Source: Escherichia coli (GTDB lineage Bacteria; Pseudomonadota; Gammaproteobacteria; Enterobacterales; Enterobacteriaceae). From it: a stretch of 48,644 nt of DNA. Shown piece after piece: positions 4,590 through 42,959 of the stretch (the first letter of the stretch is position 1; the number at the start of each line of letters is the position of its first letter). A program made the translations under genes and the position numbers. The stretch is from NCBI RefSeq assembly GCF_016903815.1, contig NZ_CP069971.1. The stretch is one strand, 5' to 3'. The notes under the pieces are model-generated. The model was not told the origin of the DNA. It saw nothing but the letters and a program-made list of their open reading frames with translations, and searched no databases.

Positions 4590-4683
4590 TAGATTTATAT
4601 AATTATATAAAACGCTTTTCATCCGCCAAAAAGTTGGTTATGCTTACCTCGTTCTATAAATATAGATTTATAGAATTATATAA
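4590..4683. repeat. two AT-rich composite sites (ATAGATTTATA + TATAATTATATAA) upstream of parA; candidate centromere/operator
   Basis: 4590-4610 ...tagatttatataattatataa and 4661-4683 tatagatttatagaattatataa. Confidence 0.5.
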
Positions 4684-4706
4684 CCAAACACATGGAGTCT
4701 CGACAA

Positions 4707-5360
4707 ATGACTATCTCTGTAGGTATTTTCAACGGAAAAGGCGGCGTAACCAAATCAACAATTGCCCGTGCTTTAGCAGTTGCTTATGCAAAGGCTGGCT
4801 GGAATGTATGCCTGATCGATATGGATGTGCTTAACGGAACGGTAACGCGTTGGGTACAACGCAGAATGGCCAACAATATCGAACCAGCAATCGCGGCGCA
4901 GCCGTGCGGCACACCATCACAAGTCCAGAAAATCATCGAATCAGAAGTATACGACCTGGTTATCGTCGATGGCGGTGCCTACGCATCTGAATCAGTACCG
5001 AAGCTCTCTGAATTTCTGGATATGGTTATTTTGCCAACCAGATTCTCTACCGATGACCTGGAAACCACCGTTAACACAGCTCACGGCATCGTTAAAAAGG
5101 GTGTACCAATCAAGAAAATTTGCATGGTGTTTTCCGGCGCGGCTGAAAACGAAGCTGACTATATTGAAGCCCAAGAGTACCTGGCTAATACGCCATACTT
5201 TGTTGTCGATAAGTACATTCCCCACAAGCCAGCTCTGAGCAAAGCTCAGGATAAGGGCTTAAGCCTTATTGAGTGCTCATACGTTGCGCCACGCAAAAAG
5301 GCAGACGATGTTATCCAGGGGATTATCAATCAGCTTGAGGCTCTGACTACTGCCGCGTAA
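4707..5360 (+). CDS. parA: ParA-family partition ATPase (deviant Walker A)
   Basis: MTISVGIFNGKGGVTKSTIA...CLIDMD; GGAG RBS about 10 nt upstream of the ATG at 4707 (the ORF track starts at an upstream in-frame ATG, 4692). Confidence 0.8.
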   Translation: MTISVGIFNGKGGVTKSTIARALAVAYAKAGWNVCLIDMDVLNGTVTRWVQRRMANNIEPAIAAQPCGTPSQVQKIIESEVYDLVIVDGGAYASESVPKLSEFLDMVILPTRFSTDDLETTVNTAHGIVKKGVPIKKICMVFSGAAENEADYIEAQEYLANTPYFVVDKYIPHKPALSKAQDKGLSLIECSYVAPRKKADDVIQGIINQLEALTTAA

Positions 5361-5403: not shown

Positions 5404-5652
5404 ATGGCCGCACCATCAAAACCACCGAAAAAGAACAGCAAAGGCGTACCGCCATCAATCGAACAACCGCAGGTTTTCGACCCGACTGAAACGCCGACCA
5501 GAACCAAATCAGGTGGGGCACAAATGGCGTTTAACGTCGACCCTGAATTTAAACGCGAGTACAAAACGTTCGCCAGCTCAATGGATATGTCATTGAAAGA
5601 AGTGCTGACAAAATCTTTTGAGTTACTCAAGGCTCAATACAACCAGAAGTAA
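5404..5652 (+). CDS. small partition/centromere-binding protein, ParG-like (predicted ribbon-helix-helix)
   Basis: 82 aa; flexible basic N-terminus and C-terminal MAFNVDPEFKREYKTFASSMDMSLKEVL, RHH-like; immediately downstream of parA. Confidence 0.55.
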   Translation: MAAPSKPPKKNSKGVPPSIEQPQVFDPTETPTRTKSGGAQMAFNVDPEFKREYKTFASSMDMSLKEVLTKSFELLKAQYNQK

Positions 5653-5714: not shown

Positions 5715-5864
5715 ATGTCCGAGCAACAATATACACGGTTACTGAAAACTCGTCTAACCGACCTCAAACGGCTGCAAGCTGGTTGCTTATTTGCCCTGCT
5801 ATCTACCAGGCCAGAATGGGTACGTGAAGCAGTTCTGAAAGGTTTAATGCGCTCCAGCGTTTAA
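5715..5864 (+). CDS. hypothetical small protein (49 aa from ATG 5715)
   Basis: AAGGGG RBS 8 nt upstream of ATG 5715; the track ORF at 5682 begins with TTG. Confidence 0.3.
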   Translation: MSEQQYTRLLKTRLTDLKRLQAGCLFALLSTRPEWVREAVLKGLMRSSV

Positions 5865-5874
5865 ATTCAACCAT

Positions 5875-5900
5875 AAAAAAGGCCCCCGAAGGGGCCTAAT
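5875..5900 (-). terminator. intrinsic terminator (GGCCCC-CGAA-GGGGCC, T-run on minus strand)
   Basis: Perfect GC hairpin flanked by an A6 run on the plus strand, i.e. T6 on the minus strand; lies between convergent genes. Confidence 0.65.
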
Positions 5901-5902
5901 CG

Positions 5903-6022
5903 CTACTTGCTGCTAATGTTTATCGTCACATTCAGAGCGTTATCAGTAATCTTCCAACCCTCCCCATGTGGCGTAAACAAAGCTCCAGTAACAACGATAA
6001 AAATACACATACAGTATTTTTT
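5903..6022 (-). CDS. small hydrophobic peptide (about 40 aa), function unknown
   Basis: MKKYCMCIFIVVTGALFTPHGEGWKITDNALNVTINISSK with an AGGG RBS, ending at the terminator hairpin. Confidence 0.3.
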   Translation of the reverse strand, partial: KKYCMCIFIVVTGALFTPHGEGWKITDNALNVTINISSK

Positions 6023-6423
6023 CATTGTATGGCCCTTACAGGCCGTTTCACGGCATCCCCACCGACGAAAACAACGCGAGAGCAAGCACGGCTGCTTGTG
6101 CTTGCATGTACGGCAACGGAGAATCCTCCCCTAAAGTCGGTGCCCGGGTGCGAATCGGCGGGAAGGTCCACAGGTATTTTACGATTATTTTAAGATTAGT
6201 TATAGGAAAGAAATTAAACGAAAAAACTCGTTTATTTTCACAAAATCAGTAACCTACCCACAATCTGTGAGTTTGCAGGCACAACAAGAACCACAATTTT
6301 ATGAAGCATAATAGTGGACTATTATTACCTTTTGGGTAAAATTAACTTGCTGCTTGTGCTTGCGTGGTTGTTTATACAACAACGTAATGCTGAAAGGACC
6401 GCGAATCCGATCAGCACGAAAGA

Positions 6424-6449
6424 ACCGTCCTCAATAGGGCGGTTTTTTT
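6424..6449 (+). terminator. intrinsic terminator/attenuator in the antirepressor leader
   Basis: ACCGTCCT-CAAT-AGGGCGGT followed by T7. Confidence 0.6.
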
Positions 6450-6468
6450 GTTTCTGCCTACCAATAAA

Positions 6469-6483: not shown

Positions 6484-6593
6484 TGTCTCTGTTAAAATCC
6501 CGCCGTATTGACATAAATGCGCCATTGGTGGACACTTTCCTAGCCGTAGCAAAATCTACGGTCGGGATTGGAACCCCGTAGACACAATGGCGC

Positions 6594-6616
6594 ATACCGC
6601 GTTAGCGGTTTTTTTA
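6594..6616 (+). terminator. second terminator-like hairpin in the antirepressor leader
   Basis: ACCGC-GTTA-GCGGT followed by T7. Confidence 0.45.
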
Positions 6617-6781
6617 TGCGTAAAGCACTGCTACACCCAAATTATGGTGGGGCGTGCGGGGGAGTCGTAAGACTCGCCGGTTCGTCATTGTGTCCGGTAG
6701 TTCCAACCCTGCACGTCTCACCACCCAATGATTGGAACCTGACGGTGGTGAGTATCCTTAACCTTTAAGGGAATCATCACA

Positions 6782-6973
6782 ATGACAAACCTACCCCATG
6801 ACTATTACGTCAACCTCGTAAAGATCCTTCTCAAGAAAGCCTCATACGCCGATAAATTCCGCCTGGCTGAAATAATCGAGCGCGAAGCTATGCGCATCGC
6901 CAGCAACGATAACGCTGTTTCTGTCGCAAAAATCTCCCTCGTAACCAAAGTAGTTATGGGAGGTGCAAAATGA
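6782..6973 (+). CDS. small protein translationally coupled to the antirepressor gene
   Basis: 63 aa; its stop overlaps the ATG of the next gene (ATGA overlap at 6970). Confidence 0.45.
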   Translation: MTNLPHDYYVNLVKILLKKASYADKFRLAEIIEREAMRIASNDNAVSVAKISLVTKVVMGGAK

Positions 6974-8151
6974 AAACGCTTCCGACCGTTAACACCCTAC
7001 AGCCTATCCTGCATAACCAGATCCCCGTTATCACTACTGAACTACTGGCGCAATTGTATGGAACCGAGCGCCAACGTCTGACGAACAATTTCAATAGAAA
7101 CAAGGAACGTTTTATAGAAGGTAAACACTTTTTTAGGATAGAAGGTAAAGAGTTACGAGAGTTGAAGAACAAAAACTCTTTAAGAGTTCCTGTGAGAGTA
7201 GTTAACGAACCATCTTTAAGAGGGTTACAAATTCCCCCGAAAGTTCGCTCCCTCATCCTCTGGACAGAACGCGGGGCTGCACGTCACGCCAAAATGCTTG
7301 AAACTAACCAAGCGTGGGATGTGTTCGAACGGCTGGAAGACTGCTATTTCAGCCAGAACGCGCAAACGGCCGCGACCGTAACCGTCTCGCCAAGCAATGC
7401 TCGTGAGGTTGTTGATACGCTCAACGCCAAACCAATGTATTACGTTAAGGTGTGCAATAACGAGCCACTCACAACCTCAGCCGATGTTGCCCAGGCATTC
7501 AGCACCACAAACAATTCCATCGTTATGGCCATCGATGCGTTACGCATTCCTCGCACAGCTGCGGCGCGTCATTTCTTTAAAGAGCAACGACCGTTGGAAG
7601 GAAGCGACCGCGAAATAACAATCTATCGCATGACAAAAGACGGATTTACCTTGCTCATGGAAAGTATCGACGGTCCAAGCGTGAAGGATATCAAGCTGGC
7701 CTACATTGAAGCTTTTAACGCTATCAGCAGCGTGTTAAAGGCAGAATACGAGCGAATACTATACAACCGACTGTATCAGGAAACAAAGATTATCCGAACG
7801 GCAACAGAACATCATCGGCTATTAACGGAACCAAACTACCGCAAGACACTAATCAAAGAGTTTGACAAAGCGACGGAGAAAACTAAAGCGGCACTAAATC
7901 TACCAACAATGACTAAGGATGATGTGATATCAGCCTTACTTCTTGATCTACTCAGAAACGCCAGAGCACTTATAAGCTTTGACGAAAACCTGAATCCTCA
8001 GCTCAAGCTACTACCACCGACAGGCAAAGTAGTCGACCAGGCTGATCACAACAGCATACTCAGCGTTCTGGATGCAAACCTGCCAGCCAGGACACTACAG
8101 GAACTGATAAAAATATCTGCGGATAAACTGGCCGCAGGTGCAAAACCATAA
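6970..8151 (+). CDS. antirepressor-like protein (ORF6N/KilA-type N-terminal domain)
   Basis: 393 aa; N-terminal ...NNFNRNKERFIEGKHFFRIEGKELRELK...LILWTERGAARHAKMLETNQAWDVFERLEDCYF matches the ORF6N-type antirepressor pattern as I recall it. Confidence 0.6.
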   Translation: MKTLPTVNTLQPILHNQIPVITTELLAQLYGTERQRLTNNFNRNKERFIEGKHFFRIEGKELRELKNKNSLRVPVRVVNEPSLRGLQIPPKVRSLILWTERGAARHAKMLETNQAWDVFERLEDCYFSQNAQTAATVTVSPSNAREVVDTLNAKPMYYVKVCNNEPLTTSADVAQAFSTTNNSIVMAIDALRIPRTAAARHFFKEQRPLEGSDREITIYRMTKDGFTLLMESIDGPSVKDIKLAYIEAFNAISSVLKAEYERILYNRLYQETKIIRTATEHHRLLTEPNYRKTLIKEFDKATEKTKAALNLPTMTKDDVISALLLDLLRNARALISFDENLNPQLKLLPPTGKVVDQADHNSILSVLDANLPARTLQELIKISADKLAAGAKP

Positions 8152-9792: not shown

Positions 9793-10173
9793 TTACTTAA
9801 CGAGGAATAAAAATGGTTTATTGTTCGGCGGTGTAATCGGGGCTGGCTCGCTTTTGCTCATGCGATCAGTGTACCAAGCCAACTCCTTGTCAAAGTAAGC
9901 CTGATTAAAATAGGCCATGAATGTAGTTTCAAATCCATAACGACCGCTAATACGCAGCATCTGATTGCCGTTCTCTGTTTCCAGATATACCTGGGCACGT
10001 TCCTGATTCTCCTTCAGCCAGGTTAAAGCCTCATCGCATGAGGACACACGATACTCATCATCGTAGCCGTCATCGATGCGGCTTGAGGAAGAACGGCAAA
10101 TCACGCCAACAGAACCAGCCAGGATAGTTTGAATTTTAAGGAAAGCGTTTTTGCGGATTTTAATCATGCTCAT
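9793..10173 (-). CDS. hypothetical protein (126 aa), first gene downstream of cassette copy 2
   Basis: ORF with a GGAGA RBS supplied by the conserved leader; no family recognised. Confidence 0.5.
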   Translation of the reverse strand: MSMIKIRKNAFLKIQTILAGSVGVICRSSSSRIDDGYDDEYRVSSCDEALTWLKENQERAQVYLETENGNQMLRISGRYGFETTFMAYFNQAYFDKELAWYTDRMSKSEPAPITPPNNKPFLFLVK

Positions 10174-10285
10174 CGGGTTATCTCCGGTTTAACCAGGGCG
10201 GGTATCGCTCGGTTTCGGGTATAACCTTAGGAAATTTTTTCCCACCTGTAAAGCACTTTTTATATAAATCTATAATTATATAAAT
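10174..10285 (-). promoter_or_regulatory. conserved promoter-leader cassette, copy 2
   Basis: Identical to copy 1 over about 103 bp. Confidence 0.6.
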
Positions 10286-10374
10286 AATAGTAACTGGTGT
10301 TTTTTTAGGCGAAGCATTAAACATTTTTGTTTAGCTTATTGGCAAGGTCTTGAAAAAGACATTTCAGCAATGCT

Positions 10375-10758: not shown

Positions 10759-11058
10759 TTAGACATGGAACGCTACTCGCTTTCCTGTAGGAAGCTCAAC
10801 ATCCAGGCTTAATTTGCCTCCCATAGCTTCAACGTAACGCTTTAATGTCGCCAGCTTTAAATCATTTCCGCGCTGCTCCAGCTTTGTTACTGCTGGCTGG
10901 CTTATACCCATCGCCTCAGCAACCTGTTTTTGTGATAACTGGAGTTCTTCACGCATCATCTGCAAGCCGACCTCAAGAATCATCTCATCTGCCATTTCTT
11001 TAATTCGCGCCTGGCTTTCAGGTGAACGGCTGGCAATCACCTCATCTAATGTTCTCAT
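10759..11058 (-). CDS. HigA-like antitoxin (XRE-family HTH)
   Basis: 99 aa; ...LQLSQKQVAEAMGISQPAVTKLEQ...; 1-nt start/stop overlap with the upstream toxin-like gene. Confidence 0.6.
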   Translation of the reverse strand: MRTLDEVIASRSPESQARIKEMADEMILEVGLQMMREELQLSQKQVAEAMGISQPAVTKLEQRGNDLKLATLKRYVEAMGGKLSLDVELPTGKRVAFHV

Positions 11059-11411
11059 TACTTGCTCTCCAGTGTGTTCAGATGTGCTGCAAACTCATCC
11101 TCAGCTATACGCACCAGTTTTTCATAAAACCGTTTATCGTTACTTTTGTCTCCTGCACAAAGAACGATGGCCCGGCGAATCGGATCGAACGCATAAAAGG
11201 CTCTTATCGGACGGCCAGAAAACTGAACGCGAAGCTCTTTCATATTTTTGTACCGAGAACCTTTTACGGTATCGGCATATGGCCTGGGTAACTCAGGTCC
11301 GTAAACCTGTAGCTTTTTCAAATCAGCCAAAACCTTTTCCTGAAGAGCGTCTTCTTGCTCATTTAGCCAGTCGTCAAATCGCTGGCTAAAAAGTACCGTC
11401 CACATGCTCAA
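11058..11411 (-). CDS. RelE/HigB-family toxin-like protein (Gp49-type)
   Basis: 117 aa; ...VKGSRYKNMKELRVQFSGRPIRAFYAFDPIRRAIVLCAGDKSNDKRFY... matches the addiction-module killer pattern. Confidence 0.6.
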   Translation of the reverse strand: MSMWTVLFSQRFDDWLNEQEDALQEKVLADLKKLQVYGPELPRPYADTVKGSRYKNMKELRVQFSGRPIRAFYAFDPIRRAIVLCAGDKSNDKRFYEKLVRIAEDEFAAHLNTLESK

Positions 11412-12867: not shown

Positions 12868-13848
12868 TTAATGTTGGAGTGATTTCCAGGTCTTTCTTAG
12901 CCTGTTATAACGCTGCTCAACGAGGGAGCGTAAATATGCAAGGTCAGCACCAGGATACATGCCATCAGCAAATTCCTGGCTAACCTCTCTAGTGATTTGA
13001 TGACGAAGTTCGGCCTCTCCCTTTTCCTGAACAAGACGCGCAGCTCTCTCCGCTGCTTTCTGTTTTGCCTTTATCTCTCTGGCCGTCTTCCTCTGACGCC
13101 ATACATTCTCCATCTGCTCCTGAATAACAATACGCTTATAATCAGCCTCCGTTATCGCTTTTTTAAGCCGTTCGCTATTCTTCGCATTGAAGTAATTAAG
13201 TTTCTGGCTAACCGCACGTCTCCATGCTTGTTCAGTAATACCAACTGTTTCCAGCAGTTGATCACGAATCTCGATTTTCGCTGGCCAATACTGTTTATTC
13301 ACCCGATCCCAGCGACGTTCATAATCAATAAAACCTAACTCTTTCAGTTGCGACAACGCCCTTGTACAGCGCGTTATAGACTTGTTCCCAGCTTCGGATA
13401 CGGTAGACAGGCCGCAAAAATCAGCCAACGCCTCAGCACTGGCCAGAACCCGCTTAGAAATGATGTTTACATGGTGCAAAATCGCAGCAATCACAGCATT
13501 AATCGCCCGACGACGATGCTCGTTTATCCGGCGTTTCCGCTCTGACGGTTGATTAACGTAGAACGCAACCTCACACGTAAGATCACGACCATTAATGCGC
13601 TGTAAAGCATCAGATAACACCAGCGGCAGCTTGTGCGTATGGTGCTTTGGAGGCTGGAACTCCGGCGACAAATTACAAACGTAAGCTGAACGTAGAGACG
13701 GCATTGGTCTATCCATATGTTCGCTCTTGCGTCCACGGAAAACCAACGTATAATGGGAGTTGTCGAGGCGCCCATGGATTGTTGTTGTTGGTTTTCCGTG
13801 GATGTCGCAAGAAGCCCGCAGATTTATCTGCGGGCTTTTTGTTTCCAT
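12868..13848 (-). CDS. repA: replication initiator RepA (IncFII RepA-like); may include a leader ORF, with an alternative internal start near 13716
   Basis: ...CGLSTVSEAGNKSITRCTRALSQLKELGFIDYERR... resembles the conserved core of IncFII RepA1 (recalled, not searched). Confidence 0.65.
   Translation of the reverse strand: METKSPQINLRASCDIHGKPTTTIHGRLDNSHYTLVFRGRKSEHMDRPMPSLRSAYVCNLSPEFQPPKHHTHKLPLVLSDALQRINGRDLTCEVAFYVNQPSERKRRINEHRRRAINAVIAAILHHVNIISKRVLASAEALADFCGLSTVSEAGNKSITRCTRALSQLKELGFIDYERRWDRVNKQYWPAKIEIRDQLLETVGITEQAWRRAVSQKLNYFNAKNSERLKKAITEADYKRIVIQEQMENVWRQRKTAREIKAKQKAAERAARLVQEKGEAELRHQITREVSQEFADGMYPGADLAYLRSLVEQRYNRLRKTWKSLQH
13762..13840 (+). ncRNA. CopA-like antisense RNA opposite the repA 5' region (putative)
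   Basis: Plus-strand promoter TTGCGT (13727-13732), 16-nt spacer, TATAAT (13749-13754); terminator AGCCCGCAGAT..ATCTGCGGGCT + T-run at 13813-13840, antisense to the first repA codons and RBS. Confidence 0.5.
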
Positions 13849-41609: not shown

Positions 41610-41875
41610 TCATCATCTCCTGCCGCACATACAACCTCACAAAAAACATCAGCGGAATGTTTCTTTTTGAATGAATGGCGCTCAAAACCGCACTCAATAT
41701 CAGGCGCAAAAACATCCACCACATACGGTCTTTCAGAATGTTTGTTTTCCCAACGATAAACCGTAGTGACGTTGAAATGTTTTAACGCTTCACGGTACTC
41801 AACGCTGCCCGTCAGGTTTTTTGAGGTCAGGTATTGCAGGAGGTTTTTTACTACTTCACGGTCTTGTACTTTCAT
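41606..41875 (-). CDS. hypothetical protein, first gene downstream of cassette copy 3
   Basis: 89 aa; RBS supplied by the conserved leader. Confidence 0.45.
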   Translation of the reverse strand: MKVQDREVVKNLLQYLTSKNLTGSVEYREALKHFNVTTVYRWENKHSERPYVVDVFAPDIECGFERHSFKKKHSADVFCEVVCAAGDDE

Positions 41876-41987
41876 CGGGTTATCTCCGGTTTAACCAGGG
41901 CGGGTATCGCTCGGTTTCGGGTATAATCATAGGAAATTTTTTCCCACCTGCAAAGCACTTTTTATATAAATATATAATTATATAATT
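41876..41987 (-). promoter_or_regulatory. conserved promoter-leader cassette, copy 3 (four substitutions relative to copies 1 and 2)
   Basis: tatctccggtttaaccagggcgggtatcgctcggtttcgggtataatcataggaaattttttcccacctgcaaagcactttttatataaatatataattatataa. Confidence 0.6.
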
Positions 41988-42883: not shown

Positions 42884-42959
42884 TGGTGGCCCCTACCGGA
42901 TTTGAACCGATGACCGTGCGATTATGAGTCGCCTGCTCTAACCACTGAGCTAAGGGGCC
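42884..42959 (-). tRNA. tRNA with CAU anticodon (Met or Ile2-type)
   Basis: 76 nt; GGCCCCTTAGCTCAGTGGTTAGAGCAGGCGACTCATAATCGCACGGTCATCGGTTCAAATCCGGTAGGGGCCACCA; cloverleaf folds by eye, encoded CCA end. Confidence 0.8.

Follow-up and report, generated by a model that had tools for sequence, protein, structure and literature searches.

A probable timPR-type type I toxin-antitoxin module on a P2-like-tailed phage-plasmid of Escherichia coli

So far, TimP and its regulator TimR have been described only from enterobacterial chromosomes, where the physiological role of the locus is unclear. In Salmonella, TimP is a 38-aa toxic inner-membrane protein encoded within the ryfA RNA, the translation of which is repressed by the divergently encoded small RNA (sRNA) TimR, and for which overexpression toxicity, inner-membrane localisation and rescue by the sRNA were demonstrated (PMC7667032). 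Translation of Salmonella timP requires a 7-bp pseudoknot between stem-loops 1 and 3 (SL1 and SL3) of the mRNA leader (PMC11228461), and pairing of a leader segment known as site 2 with the 5′ flank of SL4 frees the Shine-Dalgarno (SD) sequence (PMC13000454). The corresponding locus of E. coli K-12 consists of timR (b4811), ryfA (b4440) and timP (b4812, 41 aa). In this study, a small open reading frame (ORF) was analysed on the minus strand of a 48,644-nucleotide stretch of E. coli DNA (contig NZ_CP069971.1 of assembly GCF_016903815.1; the whole stretch is referred to here as the window). As judged by comparison with these homologues, this ORF is very probably a toxin gene, belonging to a type I toxin-antitoxin module of the timPR type that a P2-like-tailed phage-plasmid carries.

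The TimP-like ORF extends on the minus strand from an ATG codon at 6025..6023 to a TAG codon at 5905..5903 (40 codons plus stop), and the peptide encoded by 5903..6025 has the 40-aa sequence MKKYCMCIFIVVTGALFTPHGEGWKITDNALNVTINISSK. A preliminary description of this DNA had placed a small hydrophobic-peptide gene, ending at a strong terminator and convergent with the par operon, at positions 5903-6022. The stop end of that interval was correct, and its upper end falls 3 nt short of the start codon at 6025-6023. The gene itself was upheld as a minus-strand ORF of 40 aa with a strong terminator and in convergent orientation to parA, as parA and two further plus-strand ORFs were found to face it.

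The ORF was shown to be embedded in a predicted 297-nt mRNA (5875..6171, minus strand) that is homologous to ryfA RNA and consists of a 146-nt structured leader, the ORF and a terminator. The Rfam family RF00126 (ryfA) matched positions 6171-5875 on the minus strand with 142.3 bits (E 1.3e-37; gathering threshold, 80 bits) over model positions 1-296 of 296, and relatives scored between 135 and 214 bits. The known timP/TimR systems of Salmonella and E. coli (also named ryfA/ryfB or STnc2070) are likewise characterised by an mRNA of ~300 nt belonging to RF00126, with the ORF at nt 147 and a peptide of 38-41 aa with a signal-like N-terminus; the ORF in the window starts at mRNA nt 147, identical to the start position of K-12 timP. 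Upstream of the mRNA, a -10 box (TAAAAT, 6176..6181, minus strand) with a weak -35 element was identified, and a TAnnAT hexamer was found at a fixed distance from the homology-inferred transcription start site (TSS) in all seven plasmid variants (7/7) and in K-12, despite diverged flanks. At the opposite end, an intrinsic terminator (5875..5897, minus strand), composed of a stem at 5897..5880 (7 bp, six of which are G-C) followed by a U-run, aligns to the terminator helix of RF00126. A second promoter-like sequence (GTGAAA, 16-nt spacer, TACAAT; 6051..6024, minus strand) overlaps the start codon and has a changed -10 element in the relatives L011 and L019, and was judged to be a chance occurrence. 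Weak Rfam matches over the locus to RNAI (E 0.064, 6355-6450), Atu_C8 and PhrS were far below gathering and were regarded as noise.

A length of 40 codons is by itself not beyond chance, since ORFs of this size abound (a 6-kb stretch contains 104 ORFs of 20 aa or more), and such an ORF might have arisen fortuitously, with a terminator on one side and AT-rich intergenic DNA on the other. What raises it above chance is the combination of the Rfam ryfA match (E 1e-37), a match to the TimP hidden Markov model (HMM) and conservation of the reading frame with a ratio of non-synonymous to synonymous substitution (dN/dS) below 1, indicative of purifying selection; together, these refute a chance ORF, leaving it an extremely improbable explanation.

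Comparison of the peptide sequence with NCBIfam returned a single match, to NF040796 (small toxic inner membrane protein TimP), with 23 bits and an E value of 7e-5, aligned over residues 1-40 of 40. TimP was also the sole NCBIfam match for all five peptide variants encountered among the relatives (best E 1.2e-6). A BLASTP comparison with K-12 TimP yielded a full-length alignment with an E value of 4e-8 and 36% identity, and hhalign assigned a probability of 93.7% to the alignment of a profile of the five plasmid-type variants with K-12 TimP. The peptide opens with a basic MKK segment, continues with a hydrophobic core resembling a signal sequence and closes with a polar tail; the mean Kyte-Doolittle hydropathy is 2.36 for residues 4-17 versus -0.53 for the remainder, the core of K-12 TimP having a value of 2.34. 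The Cys-rich hydrophobic N-terminus that had been noted previously was thus confirmed: MKK leads into a hydrophobic stretch of 14 residues, which includes two Cys residues. These residues, at positions 5 and 7, do not have lipobox spacing, and a lipoprotein reading was consequently set aside on sequence grounds. No Hok model was present among the NCBIfam matches of the ORF at E <= 0.1, and the Rfam class is ryfA, not hok/sok; the system is therefore classified, from these matches, as not being of the Hok type. The earlier suggestion of a small membrane toxin or regulatory peptide is supported by homology to TimP in sequence, position and RNA context, and the accompanying remark that the evidence was thin has been overtaken by the full mRNA architecture and a cognate antitoxin sRNA: both the structured 297-nt mRNA around the ORF and the antitoxin at 6344-6449 had been overlooked.

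Frame, start and stop of the ORF were shown to be kept across the variants, the single indel comprising one whole codon. Among the relatives, dN/dS of the ORF ranged from 0.06 to 0.5, with, for example, 15.5 synonymous and 5.5 non-synonymous differences between L019 and L020. The other two sense frames contain one to four stops in most variants counted, with the exception of the Serratia relative L024, in which one frame has none. Three antisense 75-aa ORFs on the plus strand (5907-6134, 5966-6193 and 6025-6252) were not consistently open in the relatives and were rejected as candidates. These observations bear on the possibility that the transcript is mainly a non-coding regulatory sRNA of the RyfA type, in which the ORF is untranslated or incidental. 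In keeping with this, ryfA was originally defined as an sRNA, RyfA deletion phenotypes in uropathogenic and avian pathogenic E. coli have been read as sRNA regulation (PMC8205139, PMC10664665, PMC13188913), and the SD sequence of the mRNA is predicted to be sequestered in SL4. Conversely, the positions of frame, start and stop are retained from K-12 to the plasmid despite amino-acid identity of 36%, dN/dS is below 1 with many synonymous changes and with stops in the other sense frames of most variants, and the Salmonella homologue is translated and exerts toxicity that needs its AUG codon (PMC7667032). A mainly non-coding transcript is therefore considered unlikely, and a dual function as RNA regulator and toxin mRNA may apply.

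The leader of the timP-like mRNA was analysed in an alignment of the seven plasmid variants and K-12, using Rfam-derived helices and the published pseudoknot. Pairing was observed in 90.4% of cells, compared with 35-47% in slid controls, and eight pairs exhibited double-sided changes. SL1 (6126..6165, minus strand; mRNA nt 7-46), of which the lower stem is 100% paired in the eight sequences, contains pseudoknot site 1 (CACCGAC, 6136-6142, minus strand; nt 30-36), which is perfectly complementary to site 3 (GUCGGUG, nt 106-112 = 6060-6066) within SL3 (6047..6080, minus strand; nt 92-125). All seven base pairs (7/7) of this SL1-SL3 pseudoknot can form, and the helix is 100% paired in 8/8 sequences, with two pairs showing double-sided changes relative to K-12; compensatory versions are CGCUGGC/GCCAGUG in K-12 and CAUCGGA/UCCGGUG in a Serratia plasmid. 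The SL2 hairpin (6082..6105, minus strand; nt 67-90) carries the predicted target of the antitoxin (nt 64-81 = 6091-6108). SL4 (6029..6046, minus strand; nt 126-143) encloses the SD sequence AGGG (nt 136-139 = 6033-6036). When SL4 was aligned to the RF00126 model, five of its seven modelled pairs were shown to form in the window, 80% of cells were paired across the eight sequences, and one compensatory pair (C-G to U-A) was split 4/4 among them; sequestration of the SD sequence by SL4 is thus predicted for this mRNA. Site 2 (GCCGU, 6110..6114, minus strand; nt 58-62) can pair with ACGGC (nt 126-130), with five of six pairs present in all plasmid variants; this site 2-4 pairing displays no double-sided changes and its support is conservation. 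The burial of the SD sequence in SL4, the SL1-SL3 pseudoknot and the site 2-4 pairing are all shared with the described timP/TimR pair, suggesting that the published timP RNA switch is largely conserved in this leader.

A TimR-like sRNA of ~106 nt is predicted on the plus strand at 6344..6449, with a seed at 6349-6366, a conserved hairpin at 6389-6415 and a terminator at 6424-6449, downstream of a promoter-like site on the plus strand at 6315..6342 (TGGACT, 16-nt spacer, TAAAAT). A -10 box of the GGGTAA(A/G)AAT type, located just 5′ of the complementary stretch, is kept in all variants. The gene is divergent from timP and lies ~175 nt upstream of the mRNA start; this arrangement is that of K-12 timR/ryfA/timP, in which the spacer measures ~400 nt compared with ~175 nt in the window. 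Homology to K-12 TimR spans the 3′ two-thirds of the TimR-like RNA: the central hairpin GCUGAAAGGACCGCGAAUCCGAUCAGC aligns to GCUGGAAAGGCCGCGAACCAGACUAGC of K-12 TimR (b4811) with three compensatory pairs, and the terminators align as well. No family match was returned by the Rfam scan for the TimR-like RNA, nor for K-12 timR.

The 5′ end of the TimR-like RNA (6349-6366) is complementary over 18 nt, including one G-U pair, to the loop and 5′ side of SL2 (nt 64-81, window positions 6108-6091), in the same geometry as that reported for timP/TimR, in which the 5′ end of the divergent sRNA pairs over ~18 nt with the SL2 loop (PMC7667032, PMC11228461). The energy of the TimR-SL2 duplex was calculated to be -35.9 kcal/mol, as compared with -23.8 +/- 3.0 kcal/mol for shuffled targets. 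RNAduplex energies were obtained with the leader and the 5′ end of TimR, as full-length RNAs gave meaningless long-loop solutions. Across the variants, five recognition classes were distinguished, with the TimR seed and the SL2 loop changing together in every variant. The SL2 target reads GCAAGCACAAGCAGC in the window, ...CAAACAG... in L001 and L006, ...AAGCGG... in L004, AUGCAAGCACUAACCUG in L011 and L019, and GCACAAGUAAGC in L020. Cognate TimR-SL2 duplexes ranged from -33 to -43 kcal/mol versus -14 to -28 kcal/mol for cross-clade combinations. K-12 TimR paired with plasmid timP at -21 to -26 kcal/mol, which corresponds to background. In contrast to the shared architecture, the seed and SL2 loop sequences of the window bear no relation to their chromosomal counterparts, to which they are predicted to be orthogonal, and plasmid timP is accordingly predicted to be insulated from the chromosomal TimR of the host. 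The variants represent natural compensatory mutants for both the TimR-SL2 pairing and the pseudoknot.

Taken at the RNA level, the locus is assigned by sequence and structure comparison to the ryfA/timP family, as a new member carried on a mobile element, and agrees with that family in each structural feature compared save the protein-HMM cutoff and the site 1-2 pairing. Several points weigh against its assignment as a timPR-type toxin gene. The 23 bits scored by the peptide are below the curated NCBIfam cutoff for TimP of 45 bits, as is the score of every one of the five variants, and identity to K-12 TimP is just 36%, which sets the peptide apart from those of Salmonella and K-12. The coding signal derives from four to five independent sequences, and the ORF is almost invariant inside a class of plasmids with 83% identity, where this near-invariance may reflect a recently shared segment instead of selection. 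The site 1-2 'inactive lock' of Salmonella timP is weakly recoverable and not clearly conserved, with -9.0 kcal/mol in a shifted register in the window and -6.5 kcal/mol in other classes, as compared with -9.4 kcal/mol in K-12. Finally, the -35 element of the timP-like promoter is poor, and the TSS of timP, as well as the TSS and ends of TimR, were placed by homology.

The low family score would also fit an inactive, decaying remnant in which the toxin is silenced or defective. An example of such decay was found on the Yersinia similis plasmid NZ_CP007231.1 (L023), where a timPR remnant at 4840-5153 (179.5 bits against ryfA) consists of the reverse complement of the TimR body joined to SL2 of timP, and has neither SL1 nor either promoter; its TimR/timP fusion is as expected, from its sequence, for a deletion between two direct repeats of ~20 nt, i.e. 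the TimR seed and SL2. By contrast, all elements in the window are intact, including the -10 boxes, SL1-SL4, the pseudoknot, AUG and stop codons, both terminators and the TimR seed, and these elements are maintained in about 60 plasmids and eight viral contigs with co-variation of toxin target and antitoxin. A decaying remnant is thus regarded as very unlikely. Just upstream of the L023 remnant, at 4677-4783, an Rfam match to Ysr224 was observed.

With the locus read as a timPR module, its mode of action can be proposed on the basis of studies of the Salmonella homologue (PMC7667032, PMC11228461, PMC13000454). The unprocessed, full-length mRNA would toggle between an inactive and an active, pseudoknotted fold. 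TimR would bind SL2 of the active fold, destabilise the pseudoknot and block initiation of translation. When the level of TimR falls, TimP would be produced and would insert in the inner membrane through its uncleaved signal-like segment, rendering the membrane leaky.

Parallels to other toxin-antitoxin systems are partial. Like hok/sok of plasmid R1 (and pnd and srnB), the module is plasmid-borne and combines a small putative membrane toxin, a structured mRNA with a hidden SD sequence and an antisense RNA antitoxin, with a proposed addiction logic; the hok/sok toxin mRNA is stable, and stability of its counterpart in the window is suggested by analogy with Salmonella. Unlike hok/sok, the module has no leader ORF of the mok type, and it shares no sequence similarity with that system; its antitoxin gene lies ~175 nt upstream and does not overlap in cis, and the characterised timP homologue is activated by a structural switch as opposed to 3′ processing. 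The tisB/istR-1, shoB/ohsC and zorO/orzO systems similarly consist of divergent genes with ~18-20 nt of complementarity in the toxin 5′ untranslated region, yet they encode other toxin families and their mRNAs need 5′ processing and a standby site. To our knowledge, none of these three systems is known from phage-plasmids. The module would resemble phd/doc of phage-plasmid P1 in being an addiction system that a plasmid prophage carries among its maintenance functions, although phd/doc is a type II system with a protein antitoxin and an unrelated mechanism.

By analogy, timPR on the phage-plasmid could serve as an addiction device for the plasmid prophage, through post-segregational killing or a growth penalty, a role that we consider plausible but somewhat short of even. 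It is suggested by the position of the module next to parA, its presence in essentially all family members and its predicted insulation from chromosomal TimR. The replicon encodes RepA and ParA, and the antitoxin would not be supplied by the host, given that pairing with K-12 TimR is predicted to be at background. Post-segregational killing requires a toxin mRNA that is more stable than the antitoxin RNA. The greater stability of timP mRNA relative to TimR reported for Salmonella (PMC7667032) fits an addiction role. Two findings count against killing: native-level TimP in a Salmonella timR deletion left growth unslowed (PMC7667032), and the plasmid already possesses par as well as a RelE/ParE module. 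A broader and more tentative proposal is that phage-plasmids and conjugative plasmids captured timPR as an addiction module working through a processing-independent switch, with TimR-seed/SL2 pairs diversifying into orthogonal classes. If this is true, the diversification would shield every element against chromosomal TimR as well as against related elements that co-infect the cell, timPR would be the first described case of type I addiction on a phage-plasmid, and the variants would form a natural set of orthogonal toxin/antitoxin RNA pairs.

A genuine timPR module might alternatively serve a purpose other than post-segregational killing, namely abortive infection or superinfection exclusion, modulation of membrane stress or persistence, or a tie to the lysogeny-lysis decision via a palindrome near timR. 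At native levels, Salmonella TimP was not growth-inhibitory and induced the Cpx response only mildly (PMC7667032), a link between type I toxins and abortive infection has been drawn (cited in PMC13000454), and a role in membrane stress or persistence has been proposed for chromosomal timPR copies. The location of the module between par and a c4/isrK/antirepressor immunity region, along with its different placement in L011, is also compatible with such roles. The palindrome in question, ATAATAGTGGACTATTAT, is a perfect 8-2-8 palindrome of 18 bp (6308..6325) that covers the -35 element of the TimR promoter and is partly conserved in other classes, and it may represent an operator controlling antitoxin transcription. 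However, further copies of it were sought in the window and none was found, and with this single copy a tie to the phage repressor could not be established. Genes for defence-specific partners are absent from the vicinity of timPR, and the location on a plasmid, together with the predicted orthogonality to chromosomal TimR, agrees with addiction no less well. A purpose of this other kind is viewed as possible, though less likely than not.

The distribution of the locus was explored in plasmid, phage and metagenomic collections. The timPR region was detected in 61 PLSDB plasmids, and the terminase of the family in 58, suggesting that the module is a core feature of this family. It was present in 71 of 5426 complete E. 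coli genomes (~1.3%), almost always on plasmids of ~48 kb and including the reference strain ATCC 25922, and also in three Yersinia phage genomes, eight IMG/VR viral contigs and two Logan contigs. Seven distinct timP/TimR sequence variants were recognised among these relatives. Furthermore, the chromosomal timP/TimR pair is situated between sseA and sseB, in distinction to the phage-plasmid copy and to intact copies identified on conjugative IncFII plasmids of Serratia, for which Rfam scored 214 bits and the complementarity spanned 21 nt. Matches by tblastn on Yersinia ruckeri plasmids (E 0.3) had no Rfam ryfA match at threshold and are not claimed as members. The plasmid-type SL3-SL4 motif had zero matches when GTDB representative genomes were scanned, and the species distribution was therefore taken from the plasmid, phage and IMG/VR collections. 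A large protein database contained just two called homologues, indicating that the calling of small ORFs is the limit.

None of the plasmid and phage records that were examined carried an annotation for the ORF or for the ryfA RNA, and plasmid or phage copies of timP/ryfA are not mentioned in PMC7667032, PMC11228461, PMC13000454 or the literature searched. Because the peptide falls under the NCBIfam cutoff and both ORF and RNA are unannotated, the locus represents an annotation blind spot. The copies on the ATCC 25922-type phage-plasmid and on Serratia plasmids offer a natural setting in which to ask whether timPR is able to serve in plasmid addiction.

The spacer between the two divergent promoters (6172-6343) was shown to be far more diverged between classes than the transcribed parts, with many substitutions and indels, whereas the structural genes of the plasmid classes, where compared, are ~99% identical; as far as these comparisons indicate, the spacer marks a hypervariable or recombining maintenance/immunity region. 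In the Logan contigs L011 and L012 (2090-2654), timPR is found on the far side of the c4/isrK/Rha region instead of in the interval from par to c4, adjoining a transposase of the IS91 family, and this placement suggests that timPR is a movable cassette that was shifted as a unit. The class with 83% identity (L001, L002, L005 and L008, including ATCC 25922 and the Yersinia phages) carries an extra gene for a 190-aa protein with a helix-turn-helix (HTH) domain, which is absent from the window and is placed just downstream of TimR on the opposite strand (e.g. 3565-4137 in L001).

The replicon is circular and 48 kb in length. In the near-identical plasmid pP136-7, RepA, ParA and a RelE/ParE pair are encoded alongside a full myovirus gene set (terminase, portal, capsid, sheath, tube, baseplate, holins and endolysin), and a terminase with 99% identity is present in near-identical genomes deposited as Yersinia phages vB_YpM_39, vB_YpM_41 and vB_YpM_44. 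On this gene content, the replicon is identified as a P2-like-tailed myovirus phage-plasmid. The timPR module is positioned between the par genes and the c4/isrK/antirepressor region. On the par side, parA (ParA ATPase, 4692-5360) is followed on the plus strand by an 82-aa gene (5404-5652) and a 49-aa ORF (MSEQQYTRLL..., 5716-5864), which ends at a hairpin shared with the terminator side of timP. The 49-aa ORF, possibly a third member of the par operon, is annotated in some records only (WP_000003577.1); L011 has a 49-aa gene called at the equivalent position.

Directly downstream of TimR, an RNA immunity region resembling immI of P1 and P7 was recognised at 6530-6728 on the plus strand, composed of a c4-a1b1 target (6530-6582, below threshold), isrK (6543-6615, 67.7 bits) and the C4 antisense RNA (6640-6728, 77.8 bits). 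A region downstream of C4 (6782-8151) contains a small ORF followed by an ORF6N/Rha antirepressor-like gene (6970-8151). Together, timPR and the immI-like RNAs form an RNA-dense stretch of ~1.1 kb that is left unannotated by RefSeq.

Elsewhere in the window, a type II toxin of the RelE/ParE type with an HTH antitoxin, as well as RepA, were mapped from the pP136-7 annotation to approximately 10759-11411 and 12868-13848, both on the minus strand; with this module and timPR, the replicon would carry at least two toxin-antitoxin systems. Three near-identical direct repeats of ~113 nt were found at 735-846, 10170-10289 and 41871-41985, for which no Rfam family match was obtained. Read on the minus strand, each presents an AT-rich promoter-like box, a G+C-rich structured leader, GGAGA and an ATG codon (e.g. 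that of the ORF at 9793-10173), and the repeats look like a repeated promoter and 5′ leader preceding three minus-strand operons. A single tRNA gene (42884-42959, minus strand) with anticodon CAT was predicted by ARAGORN as tRNA-Met, and the PGAP annotation of the near-identical plasmid has tRNA-Ile in the corresponding position; a lysidine-dependent tRNA of the Ile2 type is probable.

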